Of a stretch of 64,000 nucleotides of DNA, positions 1,348 to 49,149 are shown piece after piece. Numbering within the stretch: position 1 is the stretch's first letter; each line of letters begins with the position of its first letter. The stretch covers positions 1,984,001 through 2,048,000 of the forward strand of contig OZ037836.1 in NCBI GenBank assembly GCA_964035575.1, read 5' to 3'. Source of the DNA: Rhynchopus sp. YZ270_cl-10. Its lineage: Eukaryota. The translations under genes were made by a program, and so were the position numbers. The notes under the pieces were generated by a model. It made no database searches. It was not told the origin of the DNA and saw only the letters and a list, made by a program, of their open reading frames with translations.

Positions 1348-2838
1348 ATGGAAATATGTGTGAAGAGCTTTGACGGAGAGAAGTACACAGTCGAGGTGGG
1401 TGTGGATGATACAACTGCGGACATACGGCGGAAGGTGGCGTCTGCAGCAGAGTTGTGCGAAGACGGCTTTGACATGAGCTTCGGAGAGAAGGTGCTGGCC
1501 GAAGGAGACGACACGACGCAGCTGAGTGCTGGGGACACAGTTGTGCTGACGAAGACGAAGTCGCAGAAGGACGACGCCATTGCAGCTCTTCGTGACTTGG
1601 GTGAGACAGCGCTGACTACAGACAGGTTCGAAGGTCTTGCAGATCCCAAGCTGGTTTATTTGTTTCTGCAGGCGGAGGTTGTGACTGAGATCCCCTCAGC
1701 ATGCTTGTCACATGGCACGTTCTCAGAACTTGATCTCAGTGGTGTGCCAGGAGTAACTACAATACGCCACAACTTCCTCCGTGGCTGCACCTCATTGCAC
1801 ACTCTTGATTTATCTGGGTGGAGCAATGTGACGCACATTGCTTTCTGCGTTCTCTCCAACTGCACTGCCTTGCGCACCCTTGACTTTTCTGGGTGGAACA
1901 ATGTCACGCACATCGGGTACGACTTCCTCGAGGGCGACACTGCGTTGACTACAGTTGACTTCTCTGGGTGGGGCAGGGTGACGCACATCGGGAGCAACTT
2001 CCTGAAGGGCTGCATCGCATTGGAAGGACTTGACCTGCGTGGGTGGAACAATGTGACGCGTATTGAGAACTGCTTCCTGTCGGAGAACTCATTGACGACA
2101 CTCGACTTCTATGGGTGGTACAGTGTCACGCAGATCGGGTCCTCGTTTCTCTCCAGCTGCACTGCCTTGCGCACCCTTGACTTATCTTGCTGGAACGGTA
2201 TCACGCACATCGGGAACTACTTCCTCGAGGGCGACAGTGCGTTGACCACAGTTGACTTCTCTGGGTGGGGCAGGGTGACGCACATCGGGAGCTACTTCCT
2301 GAAGGGCTGCAGTGCATTGGAACAACTTGACCTGAGCTGGTGGAGCAACGTCACGCACATCGGGAGCTACTTCCTCGAGGGCTGCGGTGCTTTGGAAGAA
2401 CTTGACCTGCGTGGGTGGAGCAGTGTCCGGCAGATTGCATGCTCGTTCCTCTGCAACTGCAGCGCACTGACGACGCTTGACTTGTCTGGGTGGTGCCATG
2501 TCACACAAATTGAAAACAGCTTCCTCTCCAACTGCACTGCGTTGACCACAGTTGACTTCTCTGGGTGGGGCAAGGTGACGCACATCGGGTGCAACTTCCT
2601 GAAGGGCTGCATCGTATTGACCACACTAGACTTGCGTGGGTGGAGGAGTGTGACGGTGATCGGAACAAGCTTCCTCGAAGGATGCAAAATACCTACAAGC
2701 AGCATCAACGTCACCGGATCGAGCAGTGTTGTGTCAGAATATGTGAACAGCCGTAGCCTCATCGAAGATTCCAACGACATTAGCCAAGCCGCCGAAGTGG
2801 TCGAAGGAGATATGAAGTGCAAATGTGTGTGCATGTGA
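1348..2838 (+). CDS. UBL-LRR-CaaX protein, 496 aa, about 13 LRRs
   Basis: N-terminal ubiquitin-like domain (MEICVKSFDGEKYTVEV...LSAGDTVVL), linker, 24-aa LRRs, C-terminal CVCM. Confidence 0.92.
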   Translation: MEICVKSFDGEKYTVEVGVDDTTADIRRKVASAAELCEDGFDMSFGEKVLAEGDDTTQLSAGDTVVLTKTKSQKDDAIAALRDLGETALTTDRFEGLADPKLVYLFLQAEVVTEIPSACLSHGTFSELDLSGVPGVTTIRHNFLRGCTSLHTLDLSGWSNVTHIAFCVLSNCTALRTLDFSGWNNVTHIGYDFLEGDTALTTVDFSGWGRVTHIGSNFLKGCIALEGLDLRGWNNVTRIENCFLSENSLTTLDFYGWYSVTQIGSSFLSSCTALRTLDLSCWNGITHIGNYFLEGDSALTTVDFSGWGRVTHIGSYFLKGCSALEQLDLSWWSNVTHIGSYFLEGCGALEELDLRGWSSVRQIACSFLCNCSALTTLDLSGWCHVTQIENSFLSNCTALTTVDFSGWGKVTHIGCNFLKGCIVLTTLDLRGWRSVTVIGTSFLEGCKIPTSSINVTGSSSVVSEYVNSRSLIEDSNDISQAAEVVEGDMKCKCVCM

Positions 2839-3562
2839 GGCATGTGCATCTTTCGAGAGACTAGGCGCTCATTGCGATGTTCAGAGAACGACTTTTGCAG
2901 TGCACGTTGCACTTTGCCCTTACCAAAAGTAACGTCGCTTTTGACCATTCTTTCCCAAGCTTCAGGGTTAAAAAGAACGAGAAGAAAAAAAACAAAAGTG
3001 GTGATGTTTTATACCCAATTCTTTGCCTCCTCGCGTGCGTGCAGTGCTGCAACCAAGCATGTTGTCGTCGCAGCCAGTATTTTTGTGCATTATTTCCACC
3101 AACATATTTGTGTGTGTTTTTCTTCCACATGCGCTTGGTTTTTGTGTTCATTAATTTTTATCAAAAAGCTTTAGTTTCGACAGCGAAACGTTTCCCCATG
3201 TATTGCACGGGAAACAATATATATGACAAACAGGTGCAGGGTGGTTCCGTGCATATCATAGAACCCGGCACCTTGTGTGTCTCCCAAAAACCAAAAGTGT
3301 TGTGTGTGAAGTTTTGAAGGAAGGAAAAATAACACCTCGTCCCGAATTTTTGTCCGAGAATACGATTACTAATTAGTTACTCCACTAAATAAATCGAGCA
3401 AAAATATGGTGAACTCAGCGGAGCCCGGTTTTAAAAGTGCCAAAAACGACCTTTTCGTTTTGACGCGTTGTGAGTTCCTCAAATGCAATTTTGAAGGGTA
3501 AAAAATTCGGGTTTTCTAAGCACAAGCAGTGTTAAGTCAAAAAATTTCGCGAAAAAAAAATA

Positions 3563-4533
3563 TGTACTGTACTGTACTGTACTGTACTGTACTGTACTGT
3601 ACTGTACTGTACTGTACTGTACTGTACTGTACTGTACTGTACTGTACTGTACTGTACTGTACTGTACTGTACTGTACTGTACTGTACTGTACTGTACTGT
3701 ACTGTACTGTACTGTACTGTACTGTACTGTACTGTACTGTACTGTACTGTACTGTACTGTACTGTACTGTACTGTACTGTACTGTACTGTACTGTACTGT
3801 ACTGTACTGTACTGTACTGTACTGTACTGTACTGTACTGTACTGTACTGTACTGTACTGTACTGTACTGTACTGTACTGTACTGTACTGTACTGTACTGT
3901 ACTGTACTGTACTGTACTGTACTGTACTGTACTGTACTGTACTGTACTGTACTGTACTGTACTGTACTGTACTGTACTGTACTGTACTGTACTGTACTGT
4001 ACTGTACTGTACTGTACTGTACTGTACTGTACTGTACTGTACTGTACTGTACTGTACTGTACTGTACTGTACTGTACTGTACTGTACTGTACTGTACTGT
4101 ACTGTACTGTACTGTACTGTACTGTACTGTACTGTACTGTACTGTACTGTACTGTACTGTACTGTACTGTACTGTACTGTACTGTACTGTACTGTACTGT
4201 ACTGTACTGTACTGTACTGTACTGTACTGTACTGTACTGTACTGTACTGTACTGTACTGTACTGTACTGTACTGTACTGTACTGTACTGTACTGTACTGT
4301 ACTGTACTGTACTGTACTGTACTGTACTGTACTGTACTGTACTGTACTGTACTGTACTGTACTGTACTGTACTGTACTGTACTGTACTGTACTGTACTGT
4401 ACTGTACTGTACTGTACTGTACTGTACTGTACTGTACTGTACTGTACTGTACTGTACTGTACTGTACTGTACTGTACTGTACTGTACTGTACTGTACTGT
4501 ACTGTACTGTACTGTACTGTACTGTACTGTACT
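3563..4533. repeat. (TGTAC)n microsatellite, about 194 units
   Basis: Perfect pentamer array read directly. Confidence 0.99.
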
Positions 4534-4542
4534 CCCAATCCC

Positions 4543-4832
4543 CTGTGTATACTGTGTATACTGTGTATACTGTGTATACTGTGTATACTGTGTATACTGT
4601 GTATACTGTGTATACTGTGTATACTGTGTATACTGTGTATACTGTGTATACTGTGTATACTGTGTATACTGTGTATACTGTGTATACTGTGTATACTGTG
4701 TATACTGTGTATACTGTGTATACTGTGTATACTGTGTATACTGTGTATACTGTGTATACTGTGTATACTGTGTATACTGTGTATACTGTGTATACTGTGT
4801 ATACTGTGTATACTGTGTATACTGTGTATACT
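4543..4832. repeat. (ACTGTGTAT)n array, about 32 units
   Basis: Perfect 9-mer array; the same motif recurs at 39956-40027. Confidence 0.99.
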
Positions 4833-5220
4833 ACCTGTGTGTGACCATACCCCAGATGGTCTGAAGAGTGATATGAGCATATTCTCCAGGTACCCGGAGA
4901 ATCCATTGGAGCAAGAATTTTGCACTTTTGAGCGTCACTGATTACATGTTGCCATTTTTGCGGTCATAATATTTTTTCAAATGGCAAAGGCAATTCCTTA
5001 AGGAATTACAGGGAAAATCACCGTTTTGGGTCTCTCTCTCTATGGGTGATTGGGTTTTAGGCACTCAACGAATCTGGTCGATTTTTTTTGCGTGTTCATA
5101 GGTTTTACCAGAAAAATCAATTAAAGCAAGAATTTTACGGTTTTGAATAGTTGTTCTTTATTTAAAAAAATACCCAGTTTGGACAAAAATTTGGGATTGA
5201 GTGTAAAAGTTGAGAGAGAA

Positions 5221-5447
5221 ATGTGCAGGGTTGGACCCCTGTAGTCATGATAAAAGCGATGCCGCCATTGAGCGACTCATAGGCGCATGAGTGATAGACG
5301 TTGTCGCTGTGGTATCCCGCCTCGCAGAGGAAGGTGTTTTTTGACACAGCAACTTCGTGAGTCAGTATCGGTCTGCGAATCAAATTGAAAACGGCGTGTT
5401 TGCGCGTCATATCGCAGAGGATAGAGAAACTGAAAAGTCATGAAAAA
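5221..5447 (+). repeat. Conserved ~225-bp intergenic module of the LRR array
   Basis: Near-identical copies at about 10157-10368, 22601-22826, 38455-38680, 40120-40348, 41461-41688; partial copies at 1131-1212 and 8181-8301. Confidence 0.9.
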
Positions 5448-5620
5448 AATAACAAAAGTATGCATGTACGTGTACGTATGGTGCCAAGTTCACAAGGAAC
5501 ACATAGTGGAGCACATCCCGGGTGTCCACATTACTATAACGAAGCTTTCATAAACAAAACAAAAGACCTCTCCCCTTAATTTGCCGAAATGGACAAGTTC
5601 TCGTTTTTGGTCAATTTCCG

Positions 5621-5849
5621 CACAGTACACAGTACACAGTACACAGTACACAGTACACAGTACACAGTACACAGTACACAGTACACAGTACACAGTACAC
5701 AGTACACAGTACACAGTACACAGTACACAGTACACAGTACACAGTACACAGTACACAGTACACAGTACACAGTACACAGTACACAGTACACAGTACACAG
5801 TACACAGTACACAGTACACAGTACACAGTACACAGTACACAGTACACAG
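5621..5849. repeat. (CACAGTA)n array, about 32 units
   Basis: Perfect heptamer array. Confidence 0.99.
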
Positions 5850-6201
5850 GTACACAAAAAACTAGAAAACGACACTTCGCTGCGACCACAAGCCACCCCA
5901 TAGGGGTGAATTTTTTCCCACCGAAAATAGTGTTTTTGAACTGTTTCGCACCAGATCTTTCCAAATATTTTTTTTACGGGCACTTTTGTCAAGTAGGTTT
6001 CCCCTTAGACCCCTTAGACCCCTTAGACCCCTCGTGCAAAAAAAAGGGGCAACGTGGGACCTTATAGCCGTGCAAAAAAAAGGGGCGCACTTTTTTTCAA
6101 AAACCCGCGGGTACCGGGTACAGACTTAGGATATGCCCTGAATTATATACCGGGGGTTTTTATTTTTTGAAAACTTGGTTGTTTTAGTGTAGACACCCAA
6201 A

Positions 6202-7401
6202 GATGAACTCCACTATACTACACGCTTCTAGGTAATGCCCGAATTTGCTGCTGGATGTCCGTAATGGCGAGACGACTGCCATGTGTGCGTTCCTTGCGAA
6301 GTTGAACTCCGACAGCAAAACAGTGGCCTTTGATGCTGTGCAAGAGGCATGCAGAGGTAACCACGCTGAATGCCTCACACGGCTTCTTCCGTATGTTGAG
6401 ACAACGCAGGTGGGTTTTGGGATCCTGCTGAGTGAGTGTGTCCGCGCAAGCCGCACTGAGTGCACGAAGGTCCTTTTGCAGCATTGGAAGTCAGTCTGCA
6501 ACAACGTCCACACAAGTCCAAGCACAGGTCAGTCAGCGAGTACCTGTCCGGCCATGTGGGCAGACTCTAAAGTGTGTCGCGTCTTCCTTGCCCTCGGAGG
6601 AGGCGTGCAGATGACAGACGAAGAAGGCTATTCGCCTTTGCACTCTGCAGTGGAGGGAGGGAGTTTGTCTGTCGTGCAAATGTTGGTCAAAGCAGGTGCG
6701 GTAGTGGGTGTCACAGAGAACGGAGGAGCCACGTGTCTTATGCTTGCGTCACGCGCCGAGATTGTGCGCTATCTTGTGGGTTTGAAGCAGGTGTGGATGA
6801 TCGGGACAGCGACGGGTTCACTGCCTTGCACTTCGCAGTGTGGCGACACTTTCCCGATGTGGTGCAGGTGCTCATTGATGCAGGGGCAAACATCGAGACA
6901 AAGGATGAGCTTGGGCATACGGCTGTGCTCCTAGCCTGCGCCCGAGGGCACGTCGATCTTGTGCAGATATTAGTCAAAGGTGCGGGAGTGCATGTCACAG
7001 ACAACGGAGGATTCGGGTGTCTCACGCTTGCGGCACTTAATGGGCACACCGAGACTGTGCGTACTCTTCTGTGCCTGCCTGAGGTTTGCGCAACTCAGTT
7101 GCACACATGCAACCACAGTGCACTGCACGCCGCAGTGCTTCAAAAGCACACGGAGGTGATGGAGGTGCTCATTAATGCAGGGGCAGACGTTGAGGCAAGG
7201 GGTGATAGGAGGGGCTTTTCGCCTCTTCACTGTGCTTGTGAGGTTGGGGAATGCGCAAGTGTGAAGATGTTGGTCGAAGCAGGTGCGGACGTGTGTGCTT
7301 TAGACAGTCACGGAAAGGGGTGTGCTCCAGGCGCTGGTCTTTGCGGTGCGCAGCCGTCCCCGGGCGGGTGGGCACTTCAGAGAGCACGTTCTTGCAGGTG
7401 A
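6202..7401 (+). pseudogene. Ankyrin-repeat protein, frameshifted (probable pseudogene)
   Basis: Ankyrin motifs in two frames (GYSPLHSAVEGGSLSVVQMLVKAGA; GFTALHFAVWRHFPDVVQVLIDAGA; GFSPLHCACEVG); frame switch near 6790; early stop after the ATG at 6202. Confidence 0.75.
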
Positions 7402-8640
7402 GTACAGCCACCCACGGTCGGGTGGGCGAGTCAGGGGGTGCAGGCGGCCGCAGTCGGGTGGAGGCGGCGGCGCCGGCTTCGTCTTGTGCGCCTTGTGAGG
7501 CGTCTTAGCCGCACCAGTGGAGCCAAGCTTCCTGCTGGTGGGGGGGCCCCGTGAGGGGGGTCGTTGCGGTGGCATCTGGGCAGGTGCCGGGTGTCTCCTT
7601 CGCTGGCGGTGGTGCCGCCGTCACCTCCGTCGTCTGCCTCTCCTCCTCCACGACGGGGGGTTCCTCTTCTTCTGCTATGCGCAGCGTGGCCTTCCGTGCC
7701 TCCTCCAACAGGCGTCCCAAAGCCTGTGCACGGTGCAGCTCCTCCTCTCGGCGTCCAACAGACGGGCCTCCACCATGGCGAGCAGCTTTTCATGTTTTCT
7801 TTGCAAAAACAAAGACATATCCACGTGTAGTACAGGAGAGGGCAAAGCCCTCTCCCCTCCTGTAGGGGACTCCACTGGCCGAGACCAATGAAGTGCAATT
7901 TTTTTTTTTGGGGGGGCAATTTCACGGGGGAGAGTCGGTAGAACAGTTTTTAGGTTTTGTTACCTGGTATCTTTTTCGTTCCGGGTTTTGTTTTTTAGTA
8001 AACACGTAGTATTTTGACACATGCTCGACCCTCGTGAAAAGTAGCGTGTTCTACGTATCCCACTCCACGCTTGTTTTCCTCCCTGTGCTCCACGACGCCT
8101 TATGTACGTCAAGTAAAGGGCATTTTCCTTGGACATCCATTTCTGGGTGTTTTGGGGTAGAAGGCTTCGCGCTAAAGTGGAGAGGAAGGTGTTTGTGACA
8201 CAGCAACTTCGTGAGTCAGTATCGGTCTGCGAATCAAATTGAAAACGGCGTGTTTGCGCGTCATATCGCAGAGGATAGAGAAACTGAACAGTCATGAAAA
8301 TAAAATACCCCCTAGCGTGTGCTCCACTAATTTGTTGATCGCATCCAATCAAAAACAAAAGACCTCTCCCCTTGCAACTGTTTGTTGTCTCTTGCACACC
8401 ACACACTCCCTACCACTTCCCTTTGGGCACATGCCTACACGACTGAGAGAGACATCCCTCGCGTCCTATCACAGCCTTGCAGCATACAGTTCTGCACACA
8501 GAGGTGTCCCCTTTGTCTTACACCTCTATCGTCTCAGTGGCAACATGTCTGCCTTCTTCTTGTCTCCTTCCCGTTAAGATAGTTGTGTTTCTTCTTGCCC
8601 CACCCAAAACACCTTGCACAAAACAGAGAGACACAAAACC

Positions 8641-9726
8641 ATGGAAATATGTGTGAAGAGCTTTGACGGAGAGAAGTACACAGTCGAGGTGGGTGTGGAT
8701 GATACAACTGCGGACATACGGCGGAAGGTGGCGTCTGCAGCAGAGTTGTGCGAAGACGGCTTTGACATGAGCTTCGGAGAGAAGGTGCTGGCCGAAGGAG
8801 ACTACATCACGCAGATGAGTGCTGGGGACACAGTTGTGCTGACGAAGACGAAGTCGCAGAAGGACGACGCCATTGCAGCTCTTCGTGCCTTGGGTGAGAC
8901 AAGGCTGACGTCAGAGAGGTTCAGAGGTCTGACAGATCCCAAGCTGATTCATTTGTTTCTGCAGGCGGAGGTTGTTATTGAGATCCCCGATGGATTCTTG
9001 TCAGGTGGCACGTTCTCAGAACTTGATCTCAGTGGTGTGCCAGGTGTTACCTGTATAGGTAGCTCCCTCCTCCAATACTGCATCTCATTGACCACACTGG
9101 ATATTTCTGGGTGGAACAATGTGACGGACATTAAGTACTCGTTTCTCTCTAACTGCACCGCATTGCGAAGCCTTGACTTGTCTGGGTGGAACAATGTGAC
9201 GCGGGTTGGTCTGCACTTTCTCAACAACTGCAAATCATTGACCACACTGGATATTTCTGGATGGAACAATGTGACGCGGGTTGATGGGTTCTTCCTCTCC
9301 AACTGCACCTCATTGACCATACTGGATATTTCTGGGTGGAGCAATGTGACGCAAATTGAGAACTACTTCCTCTCCTCCTGCACCGCATTGCAAAGCCTTG
9401 ACTTATCTGGGTGGCACAATGTGACGCAGGTTGATGAGTCCTTTCTCTCCAATTGCAGGTCATTGACCACACTTGATATTTCTAGGTGGAATAATGTGAC
9501 GCAAATAGGGAACAACTTTCTCTCCTTCTGCATTGCATTGCAAACCCTAGACTTATCTGGGTTGACCAATGTGAAGGAGATTGCAGCAGGATTACTTTTT
9601 GCATCCACAATGCGTAAAAGCAGCATCAACGTCACAGGATCGAGCAGTGTTGTGTCAGAATATGTGCATGGCGATAGTGGACATAGCCTCGTGGACGATA
9701 CCAAGTGCAAATGTGTGTGCATGTGA
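8641..9726 (+). CDS. UBL-LRR-CaaX protein, 361 aa, about 8 LRRs
   Basis: Same architecture; start placed at the conserved MEICV ATG; ends CKCVCM. Confidence 0.92.
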   Translation: MEICVKSFDGEKYTVEVGVDDTTADIRRKVASAAELCEDGFDMSFGEKVLAEGDYITQMSAGDTVVLTKTKSQKDDAIAALRALGETRLTSERFRGLTDPKLIHLFLQAEVVIEIPDGFLSGGTFSELDLSGVPGVTCIGSSLLQYCISLTTLDISGWNNVTDIKYSFLSNCTALRSLDLSGWNNVTRVGLHFLNNCKSLTTLDISGWNNVTRVDGFFLSNCTSLTILDISGWSNVTQIENYFLSSCTALQSLDLSGWHNVTQVDESFLSNCRSLTTLDISRWNNVTQIGNNFLSFCIALQTLDLSGLTNVKEIAAGLLFASTMRKSSINVTGSSSVVSEYVHGDSGHSLVDDTKCKCVCM

Positions 9727-10696
9727 AGCACCCGGGACATGACAGTTGTGACATACCTTAGGAAGCACCACATGTTTTCCATGCGCGATTTTTGTACTCC
9801 CGTTTTCAGAATCAACAGAGTGTGTACGTCGAGAATGTTCTCTTTTCTTTGTTTTTTCTTCACATTTTTGCAACAAAAACACTGACGTTTGAATGCATCT
9901 ATTGACGTCCTTGAGCTTTCTCTTCTTTGATTTGAAAGTTACTGAAACAAATTTACCACCCTCCACCTTTATTGTGCACTCACCTCATTTCTGTACTTCA
10001 AGCAAAGCAATTTGGTATACCCATTTCTGGGCGTTTTGGGGTGAAAAATGTTATTTTGTGTCTGTTTTACCCCACCGGTGTTTGTTGTCTTATTGTAAGA
10101 TAGCTTTCATCTCTTCATTTGTGTTCTTTGTTATGTGCGTATTTGTATCTTGTTCACCCCTGTAGTCATGATAAAAGCGATGACGCCATTGAGCGACTCA
10201 TAGGCGCATGAGTGATAGACGTTGTCGCTGTGGTATCCCGCCTCGCAGAGAAAGGTGTTTTTTGACACAGCAACTTCGTGAGTCAGTATCGGTCTGCGAA
10301 TCAAATTGAAAACGGCGTGTTTGCGCTTCATATCGCAGAGGATAGAGAAACTGAAAAGTCATGAAAATACAAAACTGAGGAACAGCCACTCTGCCTCAGC
10401 AGGGCAAGTGAACCAAAGGATAGTGGCCACGTTCAAAAGGAACACATAGTGGAGCACATCCTCGGGTGTCACACTAATACATCCAAGCTTTCAAAATGTT
10501 TAAAACAAAAGACCTCTCCCCTTGTAATTGTTTGTTGTATCTCTTGCACACCACACACACACAGCCAGTACGCAACACACTTCACGTTGCAAGGGCATCA
10601 GCAGGAATGTCGAGCGACTTGACTGATCAACGTGTCCCCTTCTTGATTCTTCTTCTTACCCCCAAAACACCTTGCACAAAACAGAGAGACAAAACC

Positions 10697-11836
10697 ATGG
10701 AAATATGTGTGGAGAGCTTTGACGGAGAGAAGTACACAGTCGAGGTGGGTGTGGATGATACAACTGCGGACATACGGCGGAAGGTGGCGTCTGCAGCAGA
10801 GTTGTGCGAAGACGGCTTTGACATGAGCTTCGGTGGGAAGCTGCTGGCCGAAGGAGACGACACGACACAGCTGAGTGCTGGGGACACAGTTGTGCTGAAG
10901 AAGATGCTGTCACAGAAGGACGACGCCATTGCAGCTCTTCGTGACTTGGGTGAGACAAGGCTGACGTCAGAGAGGTTCGAAGCTCTGAGAGATCCCAAGC
11001 TAGTTCATTTGTTTCTGCAGGCGGAGGTTGTTACTGAGATCCCCTATAGCTTCTTGAGAGATGAGACATTCGAAGAACTTGATCTCAGTGGTGTGCCAGG
11101 TGTGACTGCAGTAGGCCACTCCTTCGTCTACAACTGCACTGCGTTGCGCACTGTTGATTTATCTGGGTGGTGCAATGTGACACATATCGGGCCCTACTTT
11201 TTCTCTGACATGCGCGCATTGCAAACACTTGACTTGTCTGGGTGGAACAATGTGACGCGGGTTGATGATCACTTCGCCAACAATTGCACATCACTGACCA
11301 CACTTGATATTTCTGGGTGGAAGAATCTAAAGCATATTGGGAGCTCTTTTCTCTCCAAATGCACCGTATTGCAAACACTTGACTTGTCTGGGTGCAGCAA
11401 GGTAACGCGGGTTGATGACGACTTCCTCTCCAACTGCATCTCATTGACCACACTGGATATTTCTGGGTGGAATGCGACGCAGATGGGAAATTCTTTCCTG
11501 TCCCACTGCACCGCATTGCAAAGCCTTGACTTGTCTGGGTGGCACAATGTGACCCGGGTTGATCTGTACTTTCTCTCCCACTGCACCTCATTGACCACCC
11601 TGGATATTGCTGGGTGGAACAATGTGACGCACATAGGGGACTGTTTCCTCCTCAACTGCAGGGCATTGCGAACCCTTGACATGTCTGGGTGGACGAGTGT
11701 GCAGCACATCGACACAGCTTTCCTAAGCGGCTGCAAAATACCCACAAGCAGCATCAACGTCACCGGATCGAGCAGTGTTCTGTCAGAATATGTGCATGAC
11801 TATAGCTGTAGCCTCCGCAAATGTGTGTGCATGTGA
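10697..11836 (+). CDS. UBL-LRR-CaaX protein, 379 aa, about 9 LRRs
   Basis: Same architecture; ends LRKCVCM. Confidence 0.92.
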   Translation: MEICVESFDGEKYTVEVGVDDTTADIRRKVASAAELCEDGFDMSFGGKLLAEGDDTTQLSAGDTVVLKKMLSQKDDAIAALRDLGETRLTSERFEALRDPKLVHLFLQAEVVTEIPYSFLRDETFEELDLSGVPGVTAVGHSFVYNCTALRTVDLSGWCNVTHIGPYFFSDMRALQTLDLSGWNNVTRVDDHFANNCTSLTTLDISGWKNLKHIGSSFLSKCTVLQTLDLSGCSKVTRVDDDFLSNCISLTTLDISGWNATQMGNSFLSHCTALQSLDLSGWHNVTRVDLYFLSHCTSLTTLDIAGWNNVTHIGDCFLLNCRALRTLDMSGWTSVQHIDTAFLSGCKIPTSSINVTGSSSVLSEYVHDYSCSLRKCVCM

Positions 11837-12407
11837 GGCATGTGCATCTTTCGAGAGGCTGGGCGCTCATTGCGATGTTCAGGGAACGAATTTTAGGCAA
11901 ACTCAGTAACACTGTCACCAGAGGGCTTTGTATTAAAATTAAAAATTTTCAACTCTACTTTTTTACATAATACCAACCGAATATTATTGTGAAGCTGGTG
12001 GTGTTGTTTTATGCACAGTTCTTTGCCTCCTCGCGTGCACCGATACAGCCAAGCATGTTGTTGTTTTATACTAAGTTATGACAAATGCTTTGTGGTGGTA
12101 AATGATTCGGATGTTTTATTGTTTTCGTGGACATGACACTTGCGACATAAATTTATGAGAGAAATATTTTAATGAAAACGCGAAGACGATTCTCGTGCTC
12201 CTCACTTCACCCCCACACTATATCAATGCAACATGTTAGACCGTTTGGTCTGGGAGGGTTTAGGGTTCTAGGTTGAGCAATTACGAGAGGTCAACGAAGC
12301 TTTCAAAAACAAAACAAAAGACCTCTCCCCTTGTAACTGTTTGTTGTCTCTTGCGTACTCTCACCCCCAATTGAAAACACCTGCACGAAACAGAGAGACA
12401 CAAAACC

Positions 12408-13565
12408 ATGGAAATATGTGTGAAGAGCTTTGACGGAGAGAAGTACACAGTCGAGGTGGGTGTGGATGATACAACTGCGGACATACGGCGGAAGGTGGCG
12501 TCTGCAGCAGAGTTGCGCGAAGACGGCTTTGACATGAGCTTCGGAGAGAAGCTGCTGGCCGAAGGAGACTACATCACGCAGCTGAGTGCTGGGGACACAG
12601 TTGTGCTGATGAAGACGAAGTCGCAGAAGGACGACGCCATTGCAGCTCTTCGTGACTTGGGTGAGACAAGGCTGACGTCAGAGAGGTTCGAAGGTCTGAC
12701 AGATCCCAAGCTGATTCATTTGTTTCTGCAGGCGGAGGTTGTTACTGAGACCCCTGATGAATTCCTGAGAGGTGGCAGGTTCTCAGAACTTGAGCTCAGT
12801 GATGTGCCAGGTGTTACCTGTATAGGTGGCTCCTTTCTTACGTGGTGCATCTCATTGACCACACTGGATATTTCTGGGTGGAGCAATGTGTCGCAGATGG
12901 GAAGGTATTTTCTCTCCAACTGCATCTCATTGCGAAGCCTTGACTTGTCTGGGTGGAATAATGTGACGCGAATTGATGAGTACTTTCTCTGCAACTGCAT
13001 CGCATTGAGAAGCCTTGACTTGTCTGGGTGGAACAATGTGACGCGAATTGCTGAGTACTTTCTCGTCAACTGCAAATCATTGACCACACTGGATATTTCT
13101 GGGTGGAACAATGTGACGGAGCTTGGGCACTCTTTTCTCTGCGACTGCAGCGCATTGCGAAGCCTTGACTTGTCTGGGTGGAAGAATGTTACGGGGGTTG
13201 ATAGGTGCTTTCTTTTCAAGTGCACCTCATTGACCACGCTGGATATTTCTGGATGGAACAAGGTGACGCGCATTGATGAGTACTTTCTTTACAAGTGTAC
13301 CTCACTGAAGACACTGGATATTTCTGGGTGGAACAATGTGACGCAGCTGGGAAATTCGTTCCTTTCCAACTGCACTTCATTGAAAACACTTAACTTATCT
13401 GGGTTGACGACTGTTCAGCACATTGGGAAAGATTTCCTAAAAGGATGCAAAATACCCACAAGCAGCATCAACGTCACCGGATCGAGCAGTGTTGTGTCAG
13501 AACATGTGCAGTGCCATAGCGGTAACCTCGTGGACGATACGAAGTGCACATGTGTGTGCATGTGA
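12408..13565 (+). CDS. UBL-LRR-CaaX protein, 385 aa, about 9 LRRs
   Basis: Same architecture; ends CTCVCM. Confidence 0.92.
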   Translation: MEICVKSFDGEKYTVEVGVDDTTADIRRKVASAAELREDGFDMSFGEKLLAEGDYITQLSAGDTVVLMKTKSQKDDAIAALRDLGETRLTSERFEGLTDPKLIHLFLQAEVVTETPDEFLRGGRFSELELSDVPGVTCIGGSFLTWCISLTTLDISGWSNVSQMGRYFLSNCISLRSLDLSGWNNVTRIDEYFLCNCIALRSLDLSGWNNVTRIAEYFLVNCKSLTTLDISGWNNVTELGHSFLCDCSALRSLDLSGWKNVTGVDRCFLFKCTSLTTLDISGWNKVTRIDEYFLYKCTSLKTLDISGWNNVTQLGNSFLSNCTSLKTLNLSGLTTVQHIGKDFLKGCKIPTSSINVTGSSSVVSEHVQCHSGNLVDDTKCTCVCM

Positions 13566-14022
13566 GGCATGTGCATCTTTCGAGAGGCTGGGCGCTCATT
13601 GCGATGTTCAGAGAACTAATTTTACATTGCACGTTGCACTTTGCCCGTACCAAAAATATGAAACTGGGTATTTTTGTTGTGCACAGTTCTTTGCATCCTC
13701 GAGTGCGTACTAATACAACGAAGCTTTCAAAAGCAAAACAAAAGACCTCTCCCCTTGTAACTGTTTGTTGTCTCTTGCACACCACACACACACTCCACCA
13801 CTTCCCTTTTGACACATGCCTACCCACAGAGAGAGACATCCCTCCCGTCCTATCACAGCCTTGCAGCATACAGTTCTGCACACAGAGGTGTCCCCTTTGT
13901 CTTACACCTCTATCGCCTCAGTGGCAACATGTCTGCCTTCTTCTTGTCTCCTTCCCGTTAAGCAGTTGTGTTTCTTCTTGCCCCACCCAAAACACCTGCA
14001 CAAAACAGAGAGACACAAAACC

Positions 14023-15291
14023 ATGGAAATATGTGTGGAGAGCTTTGACGGAGAGAAGTACACAGTCGAGGTGGGTGTGGATGATACAACTGCGGACATA
14101 CGGCGGAAGGTGGCGTCTGCAGCAGAGTTGTGCGAAGACGGCTTTGACATGAGCTTCGGTGGGAAGCTGCTGGCCGAAGGAGACGACACGACGCAGCTGA
14201 GTGCTGGGGACACAGTTGTGCTGACGAAGACGAAGTCGCAGAAGGACGACGCCATTGCAGCTCTTCGTGCCTTGGGTGAGACGGAGCTGACTACAGACAG
14301 GTTCGAAGGTCTTGCAGATCCCAAGCTGGTTCATTTGTTTCTGCAGGCGGAGGTTGTTACTGAGATCCCCGATAGCTTCTTGTCAGGTCGCGCGTTCTCA
14401 GAACTTGATCTCAGCGGTGTGCCAGGTGTTACCTGTATAGGTAGCTCCCTCCTCCAATACTGCATCTCATTGACCACACTGGATATTTCTGGGTGGAGCA
14501 ATGTGACAAAACTTGGGAACCGTTTTCTCTCCGACTGCACCGCATTGCGAACTCTTGACTTGTCTGAGTGGAACAATGTGACGCGGGTTGGTGACCACTT
14601 TCTCGCCAACTGCAAATCACTGACCACACTGGATATTTCTGGGTGGAACAATGTTACGCGGGTTGGTGAGTACTTTCTCTCCGACTGCACCTCATTGACC
14701 ACCCTGGATATTTCTGGGTGGGGCAATGTGACGCAGCTTGGGAACCGTTTTCTCTCCAACTGCATCGCATTGCAAACCCTTGACTTGTCTGGGTGGAACA
14801 ATGTGACCCGGGTTGATGACTTCTTTCTCATCTTCTGCACCTCATTGACCACACTGGATATTTCTGGGTGGAACAATGTGACGCAGCTTGAGTACCGTTT
14901 TCTCTCCCACTGCAGCGCATTGCGAAGCCTTGACTTGTCTGGGTGGAAGAATGTGACGCGAATTGATGACTATTTTCTCTCGAACTGCACCTCACTGAAG
15001 ACACTGGATATTTCTGGATGGAACAATGTGACGCAGCTGGGAAATTCGTTCCTTGCCAACTGTACTGCGTTACAAACACTTGACCTATCTGGGTTGACGA
15101 CTGTTCAGCGCATTGGCACAGACTTCCTGATAGATTGCATTCTACCCACAAGCAGCATCAACGTCACCGGATCGAGCAGTGTTGTGTCAGAATATGTGAA
15201 CAGCCGTAGCCTCATCGAAGATTCCAACGACATTAGCCAAGCCGCCGAAGTGGTCGAAGGAGATACGAAGTGCAAATGTGTGTGCATGTGA
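14023..15291 (+). CDS. UBL-LRR-CaaX protein, 422 aa, about 10 LRRs
   Basis: Same architecture; long acidic tail shared with the 1348 copy; ends CKCVCM. Confidence 0.92.
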   Translation: MEICVESFDGEKYTVEVGVDDTTADIRRKVASAAELCEDGFDMSFGGKLLAEGDDTTQLSAGDTVVLTKTKSQKDDAIAALRALGETELTTDRFEGLADPKLVHLFLQAEVVTEIPDSFLSGRAFSELDLSGVPGVTCIGSSLLQYCISLTTLDISGWSNVTKLGNRFLSDCTALRTLDLSEWNNVTRVGDHFLANCKSLTTLDISGWNNVTRVGEYFLSDCTSLTTLDISGWGNVTQLGNRFLSNCIALQTLDLSGWNNVTRVDDFFLIFCTSLTTLDISGWNNVTQLEYRFLSHCSALRSLDLSGWKNVTRIDDYFLSNCTSLKTLDISGWNNVTQLGNSFLANCTALQTLDLSGLTTVQRIGTDFLIDCILPTSSINVTGSSSVVSEYVNSRSLIEDSNDISQAAEVVEGDTKCKCVCM

Positions 15292-15846: not shown

Positions 15847-16528
15847 TAAGGGTAGCATAAGTTTTTTTTTTGTACGAGTATGCAATACGTCTGGAAATGA
15901 AAGACGCGCTCGTCGGTGGTCATGAGTTTTACCGTTTTCCCCTTCCCCCCTTGTGCTCCACCTCTCCACCGTACTTCAGGACGCGGGTTTTTCGGGGTTT
16001 TCGGGACTTTTGGGGTTTGAAAAAAAAAAAAAAAAAAAAAAACTATGTCATCTGTGGCTGTTCCCTGGGATAGCTGGCCGGGTGGGGATAAGGTCATTTG
16101 GGATCAGATCAAACCCCCAGTCCCCAAAGCAAATGCAATGGAACCGGACACCGAAGATGAGTGCATTTTTCCTTCGTGCGGTGTAACCAAAAGAAAACCG
16201 ACGCAGGAGCTTTTCTTGGAACTGTTTTATTCTCCCTACCCCAACAACATTACATTTCAGAAACACATTGTTTTTTCGTTTTTGTTCACTTTCTTTTCTT
16301 CTCCCTCACACCTGTTTGCTGTGAATTAAATTTTTTCGTTTGCCTGGTCGCATACTGCGAGTTTTCCTGGAAGCGCAGGAAAAATGACTGGGGAGTGTTG
16401 GTGGCTCCGTGACGCCACAGAGCCGGCACACTCGTTGAGTGCCTCACAAAACCTAAAAATTTATTCCGTTTTGATTTTATTTATTGTCTTCACGCTATAT
16501 TGTTGTTGTTGGGTTGGGAAATAAAATC

Positions 16529-17448
16529 ATGCACAAAAAGGGTGTCCTTGGCTGCATGGGCTGCGGCAGACAGTGCACGAAGACGTGCATGCGGAACACG
16601 GGGCTATTCCCTGAAGGGGTGATCACAGACTTCCTCAAGAAGACAGAGAGATGGGTGTGTCCGGTGTGCGCGTGGAGACGTGCGCCAAGAACGAAGGTGA
16701 AAAAGGAAAAGCCGATCGAGCAGCAGCAGGACGAGGAGGACGACGACGCAGAGGACACGGTGGAAGGGCTCCTCGCAGTGATTCCGGAAACCGCTAAGAA
16801 GCTTTTCATGCACACTTTTGCACGTTTGGATTTTCTGCAGCAGGAGAACGAGAGTCTCAAGAAAACTATAGAGTTTATCAAGAAGTCCCAGCAAACGGCA
16901 CTCGACGCTGATTTCTCGCCGTATGTTGTTGCAACCTGGAAAAACATCCAAAATAGCCGCATCAGAAAGGAGATAAGGGAAAAGGTAGGAAAGGCATTCA
17001 GGGAGTCGACCCTACCCACTTTTGATAATGCACTCGAGTATCAAAAGGGCGTCCTAAGATGCTTCGAGGCGCTGGACAACTCCCTGGCGCTGATCGAGGA
17101 CTCAGAGGACCCACCCGCAACCAAGTTCCTGACGCCCATACACAACACCATAGTAGAACTCACCTCGACCACAATTATTGGGGCTAATGCTGCCGGAAGG
17201 ATGATGTACGAGTCTAAAGCAAAGGGATACGCGGTGGATGACTTCTCAAAAGTCATCCAGGCTCGCATTCTGGACACGGCCAAGAAGCAGCCGCACGCAG
17301 AGGTACCGTCGAAGACGCGGGATTCAGGGAGGGACGCCAAGGAGAAGAGAGACGACAGGGACAGGGGAGGAGACGATACGAGGGGGCGCGACCGAGACTA
17401 CTGGGGCAACACGGGAAAGGAGTTAAGAAGGTACGCAGGGCCCAGACG

Positions 17449-17452
<4 letters not shown>
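16529..17452 (+). CDS. Gag-like ORF1 of the YR retrotransposon, with an N-terminal Cys-rich (PHD-like) finger
   Basis: CMGC..C..C...WVCPVC, coiled-coil stretch, basic R/D-rich tail; first ORF of the element. Confidence 0.7.
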
Positions 17453-20784
<3,332 letters not shown>

Positions 20785-22970: not shown

Positions 22971-24098
22971 ATGGAAATATGTGTGAAGAGCTTTGACGGA
23001 GAGAAGTACACAGTCGAGGTGGGTGCGGATGATACAACTGCGGACATACGGCGGAAGGTGGTGTCTGCAGCAGAGTTGTGCGAAGACGGCTTTGACATGA
23101 GCTTCGGAGCCGAAGGAGACGACACGACGCAGCTGAGTGCTGGGGACACAGTTGTGCTGACGAAGACGAAGTCGCAGAAGGACGACGCCATTGCAGCTCT
23201 TCGTGACTTGGGTGAGACAAGGCTGACGTCAGAGAGGTTCCAAGGTCTTGCAGATCCCAAGCTGGTTCATTTGTTTCTGCAGGCGGAGGTTGTTACTGAG
23301 ATCCCCTATAGCTTCTTGAGAGATGAGACATTCTCAGAACTTGATCTCAGTGGTGTGCCAGGTGTGACTGCAATAGGCCACTCCTTCGTCTTCAACTGCA
23401 CTGCGTTGCGGACTGTTGATTTATCTGGGTGGAGCAATGTGGCACATATCGGGCCCTACTTTTTCTCTGACATGCGCGCATTGCAAGCACTTGACTTGTC
23501 TGGGTGGAACAATGTGACGCGTGTTGATGATCACTTCGCCAACAATTGCACATCACTGACCACACTGGATATTTCTGGGTGGAAGAACCTCAAGCATACT
23601 GGGCACTCCTTTCTCTCCAAATGCACTGTATTGCAAACACTTGACTTGTCTGGGTGCAGCAAGGTAACGCGGGTTGGTGACGACTTCCTCTCCAGCTGCA
23701 CCTCATTGACCACACTGGATATTTCTGGGTGGAATGCGACGCAGATGGGAAGTTCTTTCCTGTCCCACTGCACCGCATTGCGAAGCCTTGACTTGTCTGG
23801 GTGCAGCAATGTGAAGCGGGTTGATATATACTTTCTCTCCCACTGCACCTCATTGACCACACTGGATATTGCTGGGTGGAACAATGTGACGTACATAGGG
23901 GACTGTTTCCTCTTCAACTGCACTGCATTGCGAGCCCTTGACATGTCTGGGTGGACGAGTGTGCAGCACATCGACACAGCTTTCCTAAGCGGCTGCAAAA
24001 TACCCACAAGCAGCATCAACGTCACCGGATCGAGCAGTGTTGTGTCAGAATATGTGCATGACTATAGCGGTAGCCTCCGCAAATGTGTATGCATGTGA
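22971..24098 (+). CDS. UBL-LRR-CaaX protein, 375 aa, about 9 LRRs; close paralog of the 10697 copy
   Basis: Same architecture; 4-aa in-frame deletion in the UBL (MSFG-AEGD); ends LRKCVCM. Confidence 0.9.
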   Translation: MEICVKSFDGEKYTVEVGADDTTADIRRKVVSAAELCEDGFDMSFGAEGDDTTQLSAGDTVVLTKTKSQKDDAIAALRDLGETRLTSERFQGLADPKLVHLFLQAEVVTEIPYSFLRDETFSELDLSGVPGVTAIGHSFVFNCTALRTVDLSGWSNVAHIGPYFFSDMRALQALDLSGWNNVTRVDDHFANNCTSLTTLDISGWKNLKHTGHSFLSKCTVLQTLDLSGCSKVTRVGDDFLSSCTSLTTLDISGWNATQMGSSFLSHCTALRSLDLSGCSNVKRVDIYFLSHCTSLTTLDIAGWNNVTYIGDCFLFNCTALRALDMSGWTSVQHIDTAFLSGCKIPTSSINVTGSSSVVSEYVHDYSGSLRKCVCM

Positions 24099-34078: not shown

Positions 34079-35645
34079 AAAAAACTGATATTTACTGGTA
34101 TCAACTGGTATTAACTGAGATTTGACGTAGCCTCCAAAGAATCCAAAAAACCTCAGAAATACATGTTCGTGAATAAACATTTGCAAGTCAAAATTCAACC
34201 ACAATACGGTCATTTTGTGCATACCCTGTAGTAGTGGCTAGAGAGCACGCATGCAGACCTGTTCCTTGCAATTTCCAGTGTTGTGTTTATCAATGCATGC
34301 ATCCAGAGGACCTCTGGTTTGCGGAATCGTAGGCACTCCTGAGCAAAAATGAAATCGGTTTTTGACCCAAAATCGGGGTGTGTGGGCCTAATTTGCTCCA
34401 AATTTGGCCGAAAATTGGGATTTTTCTGAAAATTTCATTGTGCTCAGCAAAAATCCTTGCTTTTTTGAAGAATTTTCCAAAAAATATGCTATACCCCCTA
34501 TGACTGGACCCAACTCCCCTCACCCTTTTTTTTTTTCACCCAAAAGGGCCGGAAATTTTACACACGAATACACAAACTTACGGACCCCCCTTGGACTTTT
34601 TTAAACTTGGGACATTTTTACGTCCCAGAATATTTACGTCCCAGAATTGTCTGTGTGACCTTCCCCCCTCCCTCACCCATGCACTTCGGTGCAAACCCAA
34701 ACATGTCCAACAAACAAAAAAAATGTGCATACTTGGGCCGGTTATGATCCCTCCGCCAACCACCCACACCCCCAAAAATTGACAAGTACCCGGAAAACCG
34801 CCCGAACAATTCTGGGACGTAACAAAACTGGGACAATTGGGGAAAAATCTGAAACTTGGGACATTTTTACGCCCCAGAATTTTTACGATTACGGTAATAC
34901 CAACAGAATATTATTGTGAAGCTGGTGATGTTTTTTTATGCACAGTTCTTTGCACCCTCGCGTGCGTACACTGATACAACCAAGCATGTTGTTGTTTTAT
35001 ACTAAGTTTAGACAAATGCTTTGGTGGGAATTGATTTGAATGTCTTTTTGTTTTCGTGGACATCACACTTGCGACATAAATTTATGATAGAAATCTTTTA
35101 GTGAAAACGCGAAGACGATTCTCGTGCTCCTCACTTCACCCCCACACCATTTCAATGCAACATGTTAGACCGTTTGGTCTGGGAGGGTTTAGGGTTCTTC
35201 TCTGTCTCAGTGATATGTTGAGCCAGCACGAGAGGTCAACGAAGCTTTCAAAAACAAAACAAAAGACCTCTCCCCTTGCAACTGTTTGTTGTCTCTTGCG
35301 TACTCTCACCCCCAATTGAAAACACCTTGCACAAAACAGAGAGACACAAAACCATGGAAATATGTGTGAAGAGCTTTGACGGAGAGAAGTACACAGTCGA
35401 GGTGGGTGTGGATGATACAACTGCGGACATACGGCGGAAGGTGGCGTCTGCAGCAGAGTTGCGCGAAGACGGCTTTGACATGAGCTTCGGAGAGAAGGTG
35501 ATGGCCGAAGGAGACTACATCACGCAGCTGAGTGCTGGGGACACAGTTGTGCTGACGAAGAAGACGAAGTCGCAGAAGGACGACGCCATTGCAGCTCTTC
35601 GTGACTTGGGTGAGACGGAGCTGACGTCAGACAGGTTCAGAGGTC

Positions 35646-36242
35646 CCGACGGCGGACCGCCCCCCATAGCACATTTTTGCGGTGCACGGGCGTACGGGAT
35701 TAGTATCTTTTTTTGAGAGAACCCAAGAGCGGCCAGGTCCTGGACAAGTACGTTGTGCTTTTAGACCTACAAACTGTCTGGGGTGGTGGGATCGGGGCGA
35801 AGGGTGCTTCCCGGGACCCCAATATCCTACCACAAGGAGCTCGAGTCGTGCATGGAATGCAGGGTACTCTGAGCCGATTACTTCCACAACTCCCAGATCC
35901 CAAGACCTCCACGGGGGGCAGGCCTCCACGGAAACCCGCGACCGCCGACACCTTAGCTCCGTACTGCCTCTGTCTGTAACCTGCCGGTCCCCCACCTACC
36001 TACGCTTTTTGTGGTGTCTTTTTACGACGGTGGACCAAGGGGGCTTTGCAGTGCAGTCAACGCCGACGGAGCGAGACTCGATTGTGACCGGGTGAAAAGG
36101 GAACCTTAGCCAGCGCTAACCAGCGGCAGTTTTGACTCAGGGAGGAGTTTCTCACCGCAGACTGGCGACACACCCCCACTTTTTCGGGGTGGCTGCATTC
36201 CTCTTCGGAACGGGGTGTTCCATCCTATTTTTAAAAACGTTT
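35646..36242. mobile_element. 597-bp insertion with a perfect 20-bp target-site duplication
   Basis: GTCAGACAGGTTCAGAGGTC at 35626-35645 and 36243-36262; insert absent from paralogs. Confidence 0.9.
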
Positions 36243-36809
36243 GTCAGACAGGTTCAGAGGTCTGAGAGATCCCAAGCTGATTCATTTGTTTCTGCAGGCG
36301 GAGGTTGTTACTGAGACCCCTGATGAATTCCTGAGAGGTGGCAGGTTCTCAGAACTTGATCTCAGTGGTGTGCCAGGTGTTACCTGTATAGGTGGCTCCT
36401 TCCTTCAGTGGTGCATCTCATTGACCACAGTCGATATTTCTGGGTGGAACAATGTGACGCAGATGGGAAGGTATTTTCTCTCCAACTGCATCACATTGCA
36501 AACCCTTGACTTGTCTGGGTGGAACAAAGTGACGCGAATTGATGCGTACTTTCTCTGCAACTGCGTCGCATTGCGAAGCCTGGACTTGTCTGGGTGGAAC
36601 AATGTGACGCGAATTGATGAGTACTTTCTCGTCAACTGCAAATCATTGACCACACTGGATATTTCTGGGTGGAACAATGTGACGGAGCTTGGGCACTCTT
36701 TTCTCTGCGACTGCAGCGCATTGCGAAGCCTTGACTTGTCTGGGTGGAAGAATGTTACGGGGGTTGATAGGTGCTTTCTTTTCAAGTGCACCTCATTGAC
36801 CACGCTGGA

Positions 36810-37422
36810 GGGGACAAAAACGTGAGGTGGCAGCCCCCCGGCATTTTTGCCCTGGCGTCCCCGGATATAATCTCTTTTTTGAGTGAACGAAGGCCACGCG
36901 TGGGATGGTTGCATTGCACTTTTGCAAACCCGGGCACATGATACTGGAGGGTCCAAAGCAACTGGAGGAGGTGTATGCTGGGCTTTTTGTGCCCTCAGGG
37001 ATTTAAGCGACCCTGCACCTACTTTACGACCATGCAGAGCTTTTGCTTTTCTTTTCTTTGCTTTTCTTTGCTTTTTGTAGGTGCTAACCTGCGGCAGTGG
37101 TTTGCATCAGTTGGGTGTTCCACTCACCGCAGTTTAGAGAATTAGGAGATGCCAGTCATTCGTTCCTCCCATTGGAATGACTGGTGGTTTTATTGTTGTT
37201 TATTTCTTTTGACGCTGCCAGAGTGCGGACCTTGACCTGGCTTATATACTAACCTAGGCCACCAGCGGTGGTATACGGCCCCTGTTCACTTAGGTGTCGC
37301 TTCTTTGTTGGGTATAAGTCAGCAAATGGGATCAAGCCACTCTCTGGCACACCGTGGTGCCATCCTTCCCTTTTGCTGGTTTTTCTTTTTGCGGGGGTGG
37401 ATCACGTTTTTCAAGTTTAATA
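36810..37422. mobile_element. 613-bp insertion with an imperfect 18-bp flanking duplication
   Basis: CTCATTGACCACGCTGGA / CTCACTGAAGACACTGGA; short subterminal inverted repeat AAAAACGTGA...TCACGTTTTT. Confidence 0.8.
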
Positions 37423-38865
37423 CTCACTGAAGACACTGGATATTTCTGGATGGAACAATGTGACGCAGCTGGGAAATTCGTTCCTTTCCAACTGTACTGC
37501 ATTACAAACACTTGACTTATCTGGGTTGACGACTGTGCAGCGCATTGGCACAGACTTCCTGATAGATTGCATTCTACCCACAAGCAGCATCAACGTCACC
37601 GGATCGAGCAGTGTTGTGTCAGAATATGTGAACAGCCGTAGCCTCATCGAAGATTCCAACGACCTTAGCCAAGCCGCCGAAGTGGTCGAAGGAGATACGA
37701 AGTGCAAATGTGTGTGCATGTGAGGCATGTGCATCTTTCGAGAGGCTAGGCGCTCATTGCGATGTTCAGAGAACCACTTTTTGATGTTGTACTTCCAAAA
37801 GGAAGTGCACTATTGTACGTTTTTTTTTTTGGATTAGATTGTTTTTCTGGTCTTATTACATACAACGCAGAAGTACGTCACGACAGCTTTGTTTTGTTTT
37901 GTTTTGTTTTGTTTTGCGATGTGTGGACGAGCCAATGCATCTTGCACGTTTTTCCCATACCCTTCTCTCAACTCCATCCGTAGGGTAAGTTAAGGTACAA
38001 GGTACAGGATCGCAATCGATGCACGGGGAGGGAACTGGGTCTCAGTGGTGTGCCATGTGTGAATAAAATAATAAAACCTACATTCTTGAACTATTCTCCT
38101 GACTGATTTTCGTTGGACGCATCCCTTTCTGCAATTCAATTCAAGCACCAACGTGTGTGCATGTCAGGCACAGTGTGTTCCCTCAAGATAGTGCTTGCCT
38201 TTTACTTTTATTCGGACATCTCAAACTAATCTTTGTTTTTTGTCATTTTGATTTCTCTTGTTCTCTTCTGCGCACGAACAACGTATTTTTGCCCTTTTGC
38301 TGCCCCCTTTTTTGTACCACAGTGGACAGGCTCAGTACCCCCTGCACAACTATGCTTGTGCACGAGAGAGACCTCATGGAGCTTTCAAGGTTTCGTTCTT
38401 TCGTTCAATTGCCCCTTCATTTGTGTGTGTGAATATTTTTGTGTTGTGAGAGAAATGTGCAGGGTTGGACCCCTGTAGTCATGATAAAAGCGATGCCGCC
38501 ATTGAGCGACTCATAGACGCATGAGTGATAGACGTTGTCGCTGTGGTATCCCGCCTCGCAGAGGAAGGTGTTTTTTGACACAGCAACTTCGTGAGTCAGT
38601 ATCGGTCTGCGAATCAAATTGAAAACGGCGTGTTTGCGCGTCATATCGCAGAGGATAGAGAAACTGAAAAGTCATGAAAATAACAAAAGTATGGTGCCAA
38701 GTTCACAAGGAACACATAGTGGAGCACATCCTCGGGTGTCCACACTAATACAACGAAGCTTTCAAAACAAAACAAAAGACCTCTCCCCTTGTAACTGTTT
38801 GTTGTCTCTTGCGTACTCTTGCCCCCAATTGAAAACACCTGCACAAAACAGAGAGACACAAAACC

Positions 38866-48395: not shown

Positions 48396-49149
48396 GATAG
48401 CAGTAGAGGTGGTGAGAGAGAGGGTGGATGGGGGGGGGGAAGGTGGGGAAGGTGGGGGACGTTGCGCCCCAGGTTAGGTGGTTGGTCTGCTTGGTTTTTT
48501 TTTTTTGTGTGAAGAGTGGTGTGCGGGTTGGCAGTTTTTTTTTTTTGGGGGGGGAAACTGCTTTAAATCATCCTGACCGAAGTGTGTGTTGGTACAGTTA
48601 TTGATCGTAAAATTACCCCCCGATTAAAATGTACTTTTTGCCAACATATCATATGAAAGTCAGTGTCTTTATTTTGTGAAAAAATAGGTGTGACTGTCTC
48701 TAAACTACCCAAAATTTACAATTATTTTTGCCAACCTTTTTCCTGTGTGGTGTGTGACTGAGTGTCGGGGATGCGTTCAAGAATTTAAACTCTTCCCCCC
48801 TTTTTCGTCTTTAGTTTTCTTTATCCAAACGGCAAAAGTGGATGCGTAATAATTTGGCTTTTGTAGCTTCGGGGGCTTTCCTCTCGTTTCTTAGTGATAT
48901 GGTCGCAGTGGTAGCTCTACAAAGGAGCCCTTCTTCTTGTCTTTTTAAAGACGTTGTGTGCGTTTGTGTGCGTTCATTTCTCAAGTTTTCTTTTGTTTGG
49001 TTCTCGCGTGAGATGATTCGTTTTTTTACGTTTGAACAGAAGGGGTACCATGGTGTGGCTAAATGGGGGAGCGGAAAAAGTGCTGAAATGTGCGGAAAAA
49101 GTGCGAATCAGCCCCCTTAAGCCACACCATGAATATTTTACGTTGCAAC

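Follow-up and report, generated by a model that had tools for sequence, protein, structure and literature searches.

A family of genes combining a ubiquitin-like domain, BspA-type repeats and a CaaX box in Rhynchopus, with a candidate binding face probably under moderate diversifying selection

We analysed a 64,000-nucleotide window of Rhynchopus sp. YZ270_cl-10 DNA (assembly GCA_964035575.1, contig OZ037836.1, positions 1,984,001 to 2,048,000 of the forward strand), in which an original prediction made from the sequence alone had singled out leucine-rich repeats (LRRs) at 1720-15140 for hypervariability at a few codons. The window contains ten related genes (g0-g9) and a second subfamily (h1, h2), the region singled out spanning g1-g5. 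The explanation we favour, with moderate confidence, is that these genes belong to a large recombining family, in which a ubiquitin-like domain (Ubl) is followed by 6-13 BspA/TpLRR repeats of 25 residues and a CaaX box, whose products are predicted to be prenylated at the cytosolic membrane face and in which codons 16-24 likely encode a binding face, probably under moderate diversifying selection.

The repeat unit comprises 75 bp or 25 codons and not the 72 bp assumed at first, a length found in just 3 of the 82 units of g0-g9, and most units alternate between a type A and a type B. Amino acid entropy in the 37 internal units within 1720-15140 is not evenly spread along the repeat and peaks at positions 19 (3.2 bits), 20 (2.7 bits), 23 (2.5 bits) and 24 (2.3 bits), with positions 1, 4, 12, 16 and 18 forming a second tier (1.7-2.2 bits). 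The same four positions are the most variable, followed by 1, 16, 12, 4 and 18, in 385 distinct units from 94 of the best 120 homologs, and D7, S9 and G10 are almost invariant in both sets of units. The LD(L/I)SGW strand is conserved as described, with entropies of 0-0.7 bits at D, S, G and W in the 37 internal units. Variability is concentrated in few codons, as proposed, but it is not confined to them, given the second-tier positions, and its peaks lie off the β-strand, although position 4, on the first strand, varies as well. The two codons after the FL pair (23 and 24) indeed vary widely, but the most variable codon, 19, precedes it; a third-position C at these two codons is common (28/37 at position 23, 32/37 at 24) and not fixed, and the codons CGC (23) and ATC (24), listed for the region singled out, both come from g0 (1-507) outside it. 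In 349 units of 75 CaaX-bearing relatives, pairwise identity is 0.13 at positions 19/20/23/24 versus 0.84 at 5/7/9/10, and these units display 332 different six-residue variable faces. At 19/20/23/24, 20% of the residues are Tyr, Phe, Trp or His, compared with 1% at 4/5/7/9/10.

Both the sequence and the predicted fold assign the repeats to the BspA/TpLRR class. The Pfam profile LRR_5 matches with 168 bits (curated cut-off 27.7). An AlphaFold2 model of the g5 protein, built from a 41-sequence alignment, reaches a predicted local distance difference test score of 90.5, and DSSP places strands at unit positions 5-7 and 16-17, the repeats being free of helices. The top six VIA matches to the model are all of the BspA/TpLRR type (4fd0, 4fdw, PcpA 4cp6, TpLRR 6mlx, 4gt6 and 4h09), as are the best Foldseek matches. 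The root-mean-square deviation is 3.1 over 198 residues for TpLRR 6mlx, 3-7 for TpLRR-type chains and 7-11 for most canonical LRRs listed. TpLRR-class repeats reportedly have a flipped curvature with the LxL sheet on the convex side. Positions 16-24 appear to lie half a turn away from the LxL strand and, granted this curvature, would form the concave face, the side on which LRRs usually bind, here within an uncommon fold; codons 16-24 likely encode an exposed binding face. The proposal that diversification acts on a surface different from the concave face is thus probably wrong for repeats whose LxL sheet is said to be convex.

We compared four groups of the 25-residue repeat type, including proteins named Holosporales bacterium, Flectonema neradi and Lacrimia lanifica. 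Positions 20, 23 and 24 are always within the top seven variable positions, and 19 and 16 are so in three groups. Because 20, 23 and 24 are top-ranked in all four groups, off-strand variability is a property of the class, and what is particular to the g0-g9 family is the strong conservation of the first strand. The off-strand and NNC features are ordinary, and most of what seemed surprising in the pattern has an ordinary cause.

The NNC codon pattern had been likened to the variable regions of diversity-generating retroelements (DGRs). In 49 distinct type A/B units, 45 codons at 23/24 change the amino acid, of which 39 retain the third C and the remaining six are Lys codons; this is about the background synonymous third-base retention (779/882, 88%). 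At 19/20, only 30 of 63 such codons retain it. The NNC pattern results from changes at codon positions 1 and 2 hitting TCC and AAC ancestors, the consensus codons at 23 and 24, under low synonymous divergence, with the third-base C presumably inherited from these. A DGR-like or other targeted mutator rewriting the variable codons is highly improbable: the 39 of 45 codons ending in C and the AAC consensus of codon 24 would fit it, but the NNC level matches the background, codon 23 is TCC, and deviations fall on every consensus base (81/272 for A, 82/294 for C, 36/169 for G, 47/147 for T) without adenine specificity. Moreover, residues impossible for NNC codons (Lys, Glu, Gln, Met, Trp) make up 12% at the variable sites. 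Scanning the window on both strands returned only further coding units and no template copy, agreeing with the earlier observation that no template repeat is visible, and the only reverse transcriptase (RT) among the ten long open reading frames (ORFs) scanned is part of a tyrosine-recombinase (YR) retrotransposon. The likeness to DGRs is therefore limited to a superficial NNC pattern, lacking adenine specificity, a template in the window and a DGR RT in these ten ORFs, the first two of which led us to rule out a DGR variable region.

Diversifying selection was analysed on window units only, leaving out the ten internal units of g1, first and last units, 72-bp units and two duplicates, which gave 22 type-A and 27 type-B units for site models using our own implementation of GY94 on FastTree trees. 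Models allowing positive selection fit better in both sets (M2a versus M1a, 2dL = 18.2 for A and 11.6 for B; M8 versus M8a, 15.5 and 11.2), with omega values of 2.0-3.4. When the synonymous rate is kept uniform, a fixed-site model fitted to 22+27+12 units gives omega 2.2-2.5 at 19/20/23/24, and per-column estimates are 3.3 (19), 2.2 (23), 2.1 (16), 1.8 (20) and 1.6 (24) versus 0.1-0.4 at positions 5, 7, 9 and 10. Pairwise pN/pS is 1.2-2.0, and a tree-free minimum count yields a nonsynonymous to synonymous (N/S) ratio of 1.4-1.6 against unit-wide S (p 0.01-0.03). Within 19 in-register unit pairs we counted 17 N changes on 186 sites at 19/20/23/24 versus 19 S changes on 325 sites overall.

Several results weigh against this account. 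A free local synonymous rate lowers the fixed-site omega to 1.5 (p 0.11) or 1.8 (p 0.014), and the tree-free count gives 2.90 N per site versus 3.27 local S per site, a ratio of 0.89, exceeding one only against unit-wide S. In null simulations with matched divergence (22 units, 2-8 recombining blocks, n=94), which supersede an earlier set at too low divergence (2/83 at the nominal level), heavy recombination let 16 of 94 pass the nominal 5% level, 5 of 94 reach 11.6 and 2 of 94 reach 18.2, corresponding to an empirical p of about 0.02-0.05. Site classes were picked from the same data as tested, type-A units flag positions 1, 2 and 4 too, and a pairwise homoplasy index test for recombination inside units is not significant (p 0.06-0.96). 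Diversifying selection is thus moderately supported by omega values of about 2-3.4, whereas "strong", as originally worded, overstates it because p is about 0.02-0.05 once recombination is simulated and 0.014-0.11 once a local rate is allowed; dN/dS exceeds one in the site models but not in the tree-free count against local S. Positive selection at the variable codons is probable and moderate, and not proven.

Neutral drift, with 19/20/23/24 being free x positions of the class and concerted evolution together with folding constraint holding the rest, is a possible, if not very probable, explanation of the same data. It would account for 20, 23 and 24 being among the most variable positions in every group tested and for the high local synonymous rate, and under F3x4 a neutral model with a 2.1-fold rate fits as well as omega 2.2 (lnL -2174.45 versus -2174.36). 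However, the equal-frequency model still prefers omega >1 (p 0.014), other exposed positions (5, 7, 9, 10, 13, 15) have omega 0.1-0.6, close paralog pairs show the 17 N on 186 sites at 19/20/23/24 versus 2 S on 42, and the aromatic enrichment at these positions speaks against drift. We found no site-wise analysis of positive selection in BspA repeats in the literature, subscription journals and bioRxiv supplements being out of view.

Near-identical units occur in different genes and at different positions, with g4 unit 8 and g5 unit 9 differing at 3 of 75 nt and g8 unit 4 and g9 unit 5 at 5 nt. Together with the internal duplications of g1 and the varying unit number among genes, this fits unequal crossing-over and conversion. 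In contigs from two studies, the codons of g5 reappear without any listed difference, at a depth of about 120-150 that is roughly single-copy. This is consistent with paralogs that are stable in the germline; because rare variants are lost from Logan contigs, the recurrence cannot show low-level variation within a clone.

The complete genes encode, in order, a Ubl (PF00240; 29.6 bits), a helical cap, 6-13 repeats (PF13306), a C-terminal cap and usually a CVCM terminus, this CaaX box being present in the window genes except for g9, h1 and h2. The Ubl is near-identical, with about 2% divergence among seven genes. No window protein has a di-glycine after the Ubl fold, arguing for an integral Ubl and not a conjugatable modifier, and the MUB-type Pfam family is absent from the Ubl profile matches (E up to 1). 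A Ubl remnant interrupted by a stop lies near 51700 (51700-51920). A homolog search returned 666 matches, the best 120 of which are ENA or window proteins; 75 of these 120 end in CaaX and 45 of the 120 lie on the window's own 2.16-Mb contig, the homologs beyond this contig appearing to derive from the same assembly. The family probably numbers over 75 variable binders, predicted to be anchored in membranes and to face the cytosol. A B-box-type zinc finger is found in other relatives (P0169). A related-locus search found no relative in metagenome or viral contigs, and a phage search returned only distant DUF285/internalin-like matches with <60% identity. Clusters with Ubl and DUF285 repeats elsewhere in the ESM Atlas present a parallel Ubl and BspA-like architecture, a lead only at scores <0.9. 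BspA expansions in protists and CaaX-bearing BspA proteins are already known, whereas we found no description of the Ubl-BspA-CaaX combination in the literature, with subscription journals and bioRxiv supplements out of view.

The family shares with BspA/TpLRR-class proteins (PF13306; 6mlx, 4cp6, 4fdw/4fd0) the repeat consensus, helix-free repeats of two short strands each and, in the alignment to 4gt6, variable xx residues before and after the F-hydrophobic pair; it differs by its 25-residue LDLSGW units, its cytosolic-type architecture of Ubl and CaaX and its many near-identical paralogs. Proteins with 25-residue LDLSPLSNVTxIGxxFLxxC repeats from Holosporales, other diplonemids and a KYxKYK-type group, which we take to be giant-virus-like, have the same repeat subtype and mostly the same top variable positions, but they lack the family's Ubl and cap N-terminus and their first-strand x positions are more variable. 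The subtype is found in P0130, P0135, P0161, P0172, P0219 and others of the Holosporales and KYxKYK-type proteins, one Holosporales protein having a weak F-box match. An exchange of this subtype between host and invader is possible. Variable lymphocyte receptors and the LRRs of plant nucleotide-binding immune receptors are alike in principle, combining a constant scaffold with a variable binding face and shuffled modules; they have the canonical LRR fold, and the family described here shows no sign of somatic assembly or NB-ARC. The FNIP/FGxxFN families of CroV and Dictyostelium likewise form a large LRR repertoire in a single genome with variation off the LxL strand, but are of another repeat class with a normal concave sheet, and neither Ubl nor CaaX is noted in the available part of PMC9525666. 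Entamoeba and Trichomonas also have large BspA-like families, several Entamoeba members bearing CaaX according to the accessible text of PMC2843621; these hosts are parasites, TvBspA lacks CAAX and "ubiquitin" is absent from that article's main text, whereas proteins of the present family as a rule begin with a Ubl, in what is likely a free-living diplonemid host.

The variability probably reflects moderate diversifying selection towards recognition of foreign proteins rather than a DGR-like mutator, and our best guess is a putative anti-symbiont or anti-viral role. The CaaX box, its upstream Cys and the basic residues predict that the proteins are prenylated on the cytosolic side, and both CaaX processing and Ubl partners are cytosolic. 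Prenylation would place the proteins on the cytosolic face of membranes, where the variable faces may form a repertoire that binds proteins from viruses or intracellular bacteria and the constant Ubl may link captured targets to a shared downstream partner of the proteasome/p97 type or in signalling, a design of many sensors and one output built from a constant Ubl and a variable aromatic-rich face. New specificities would arise in the germline by point mutation, unit shuffling and gene conversion. The main alternative on function, an Entamoeba-like cell-surface location with the proteins acting as variable adhesins or in prey interaction or antigenic variation after unconventional export, is unlikely: inspected by eye, the sequences show neither an evident signal peptide nor a membrane helix, the cytosolic CaaX processing and Ubl partners argue against it, and the second subfamily has a basic tail in place of CaaX. 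In its favour, one CaaX-bearing Entamoeba BspA is reported at the cell surface in the accessible text of PMC2843621, and some members at the surface without a signal peptide in that of PMC8017271.

Extending the reading of cytosolic binders, we tentatively suggest, as a rather doubtful possibility, that a free-living protist maintains an anticipatory intracellular immune repertoire of scores of tethered BspA-repeat binders, which would be reshuffled by unit and selected on an inverted concave face. They would catch proteins from symbionts of the Holosporales type or from giant viruses and pass them on via the constant Ubl, while sharing the repeat subtype of the invaders. Diplonemid endosymbionts carry LRR proteins, some beside effectors of the type VI secretion system, according to the available part of bioRxiv 10.1101/719211; in a preprint dealing with gene transfer in diplonemids that harbour symbionts, the main text contains neither "LRR" nor "leucine". 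Recognition of intracellular bacteria and viruses by protists is largely open, and a compact, regular family of single-exon genes, whose Ubl is constant and whose variable face can be counted, would make it testable. The family also hints at where BspA-type repeats bind and may offer a natural binder scaffold.

All family genes of the window are on the + strand. The 3' part of g0 (1-507) retains five LRR units, the C-terminal cap and CVCM. In g1 (1348-2838), Ubl and helical cap are followed by 13 units of a divergent subtype with the internal duplications (1714-2685) and CVCM. Ubl, repeats and CVCM are likewise found in g2 (8641-9726; 8 units, 9007-9606), g3 (10697-11836; 9 units, 11063-11734; a close paralog of g6), g4 (12408-13565; 9 units, 12774-13448; a close paralog of g7) and g5 (14023-15291; 10 units, 14389-15138), the protein used for the structure model. 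Further family genes are g6 (22971-24098; 9 units, CVCM), g8 (38866-39795; 6 units, CVCM) and g9 (42067-43041; 7 units, without CaaX). The second subfamily is represented by h1 (53545-54441), a partial frame with LDLSPLSN-type 25-residue units, and h2 (55475-56668; start approximate), with Ubl, LRRs and a basic tail resembling a nuclear localization signal instead of CaaX.

The gene g7 (35354-37723) is broken by two inserts of about 600 bp, each flanked by a direct repeat, and without them forms a single open frame to CVCM. The insert at 35646-36242 (about 600 bp) lies in the helical cap and has a perfect 20-bp direct repeat, and a short C-rich/T-rich motif at its start is shared with the second insert. 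The latter (36810-37422; 613 bp) directly follows the conserved L-D codons of an LRR unit and has imperfect flanking direct repeats of about 18 bp. P0073 reads 24 residues of this insert, and the same GTKT ending occurs in three other relatives (P0070, P0077, P0230), each after a different unit. The 613-bp insert is possibly a site-specific element or a non-canonical intron targeting the conserved repeat strand.

The remaining content of the window is eukaryotic, including TFIIS, a PARG-like domain, ankyrin fragments, the YR retrotransposon and a major facilitator superfamily carrier. Proteins of Diplonema ambulator (56%) and Lacrimia lanifica (54%) are the best named relatives of this carrier, a single gene from which a diplonemid host is likely. 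The retrotransposon lies within the gene array (16475-20784) and has a gag-like ORF, an RT, whose frame contains a 102-nt C run, and a phage-integrase-type YR in an overlapping frame. A weak match to large-subunit rRNA at 49009-49560 (52.5 bits, cut-off 50) is probably a degenerate fragment. Between g1 and g2, long perfect microsatellites (5 bp x194, 9 bp x32 and 7 bp x34) occupy 3563-5856, and frameshifted fragments of ankyrin-repeat genes are found at 6236-7401.

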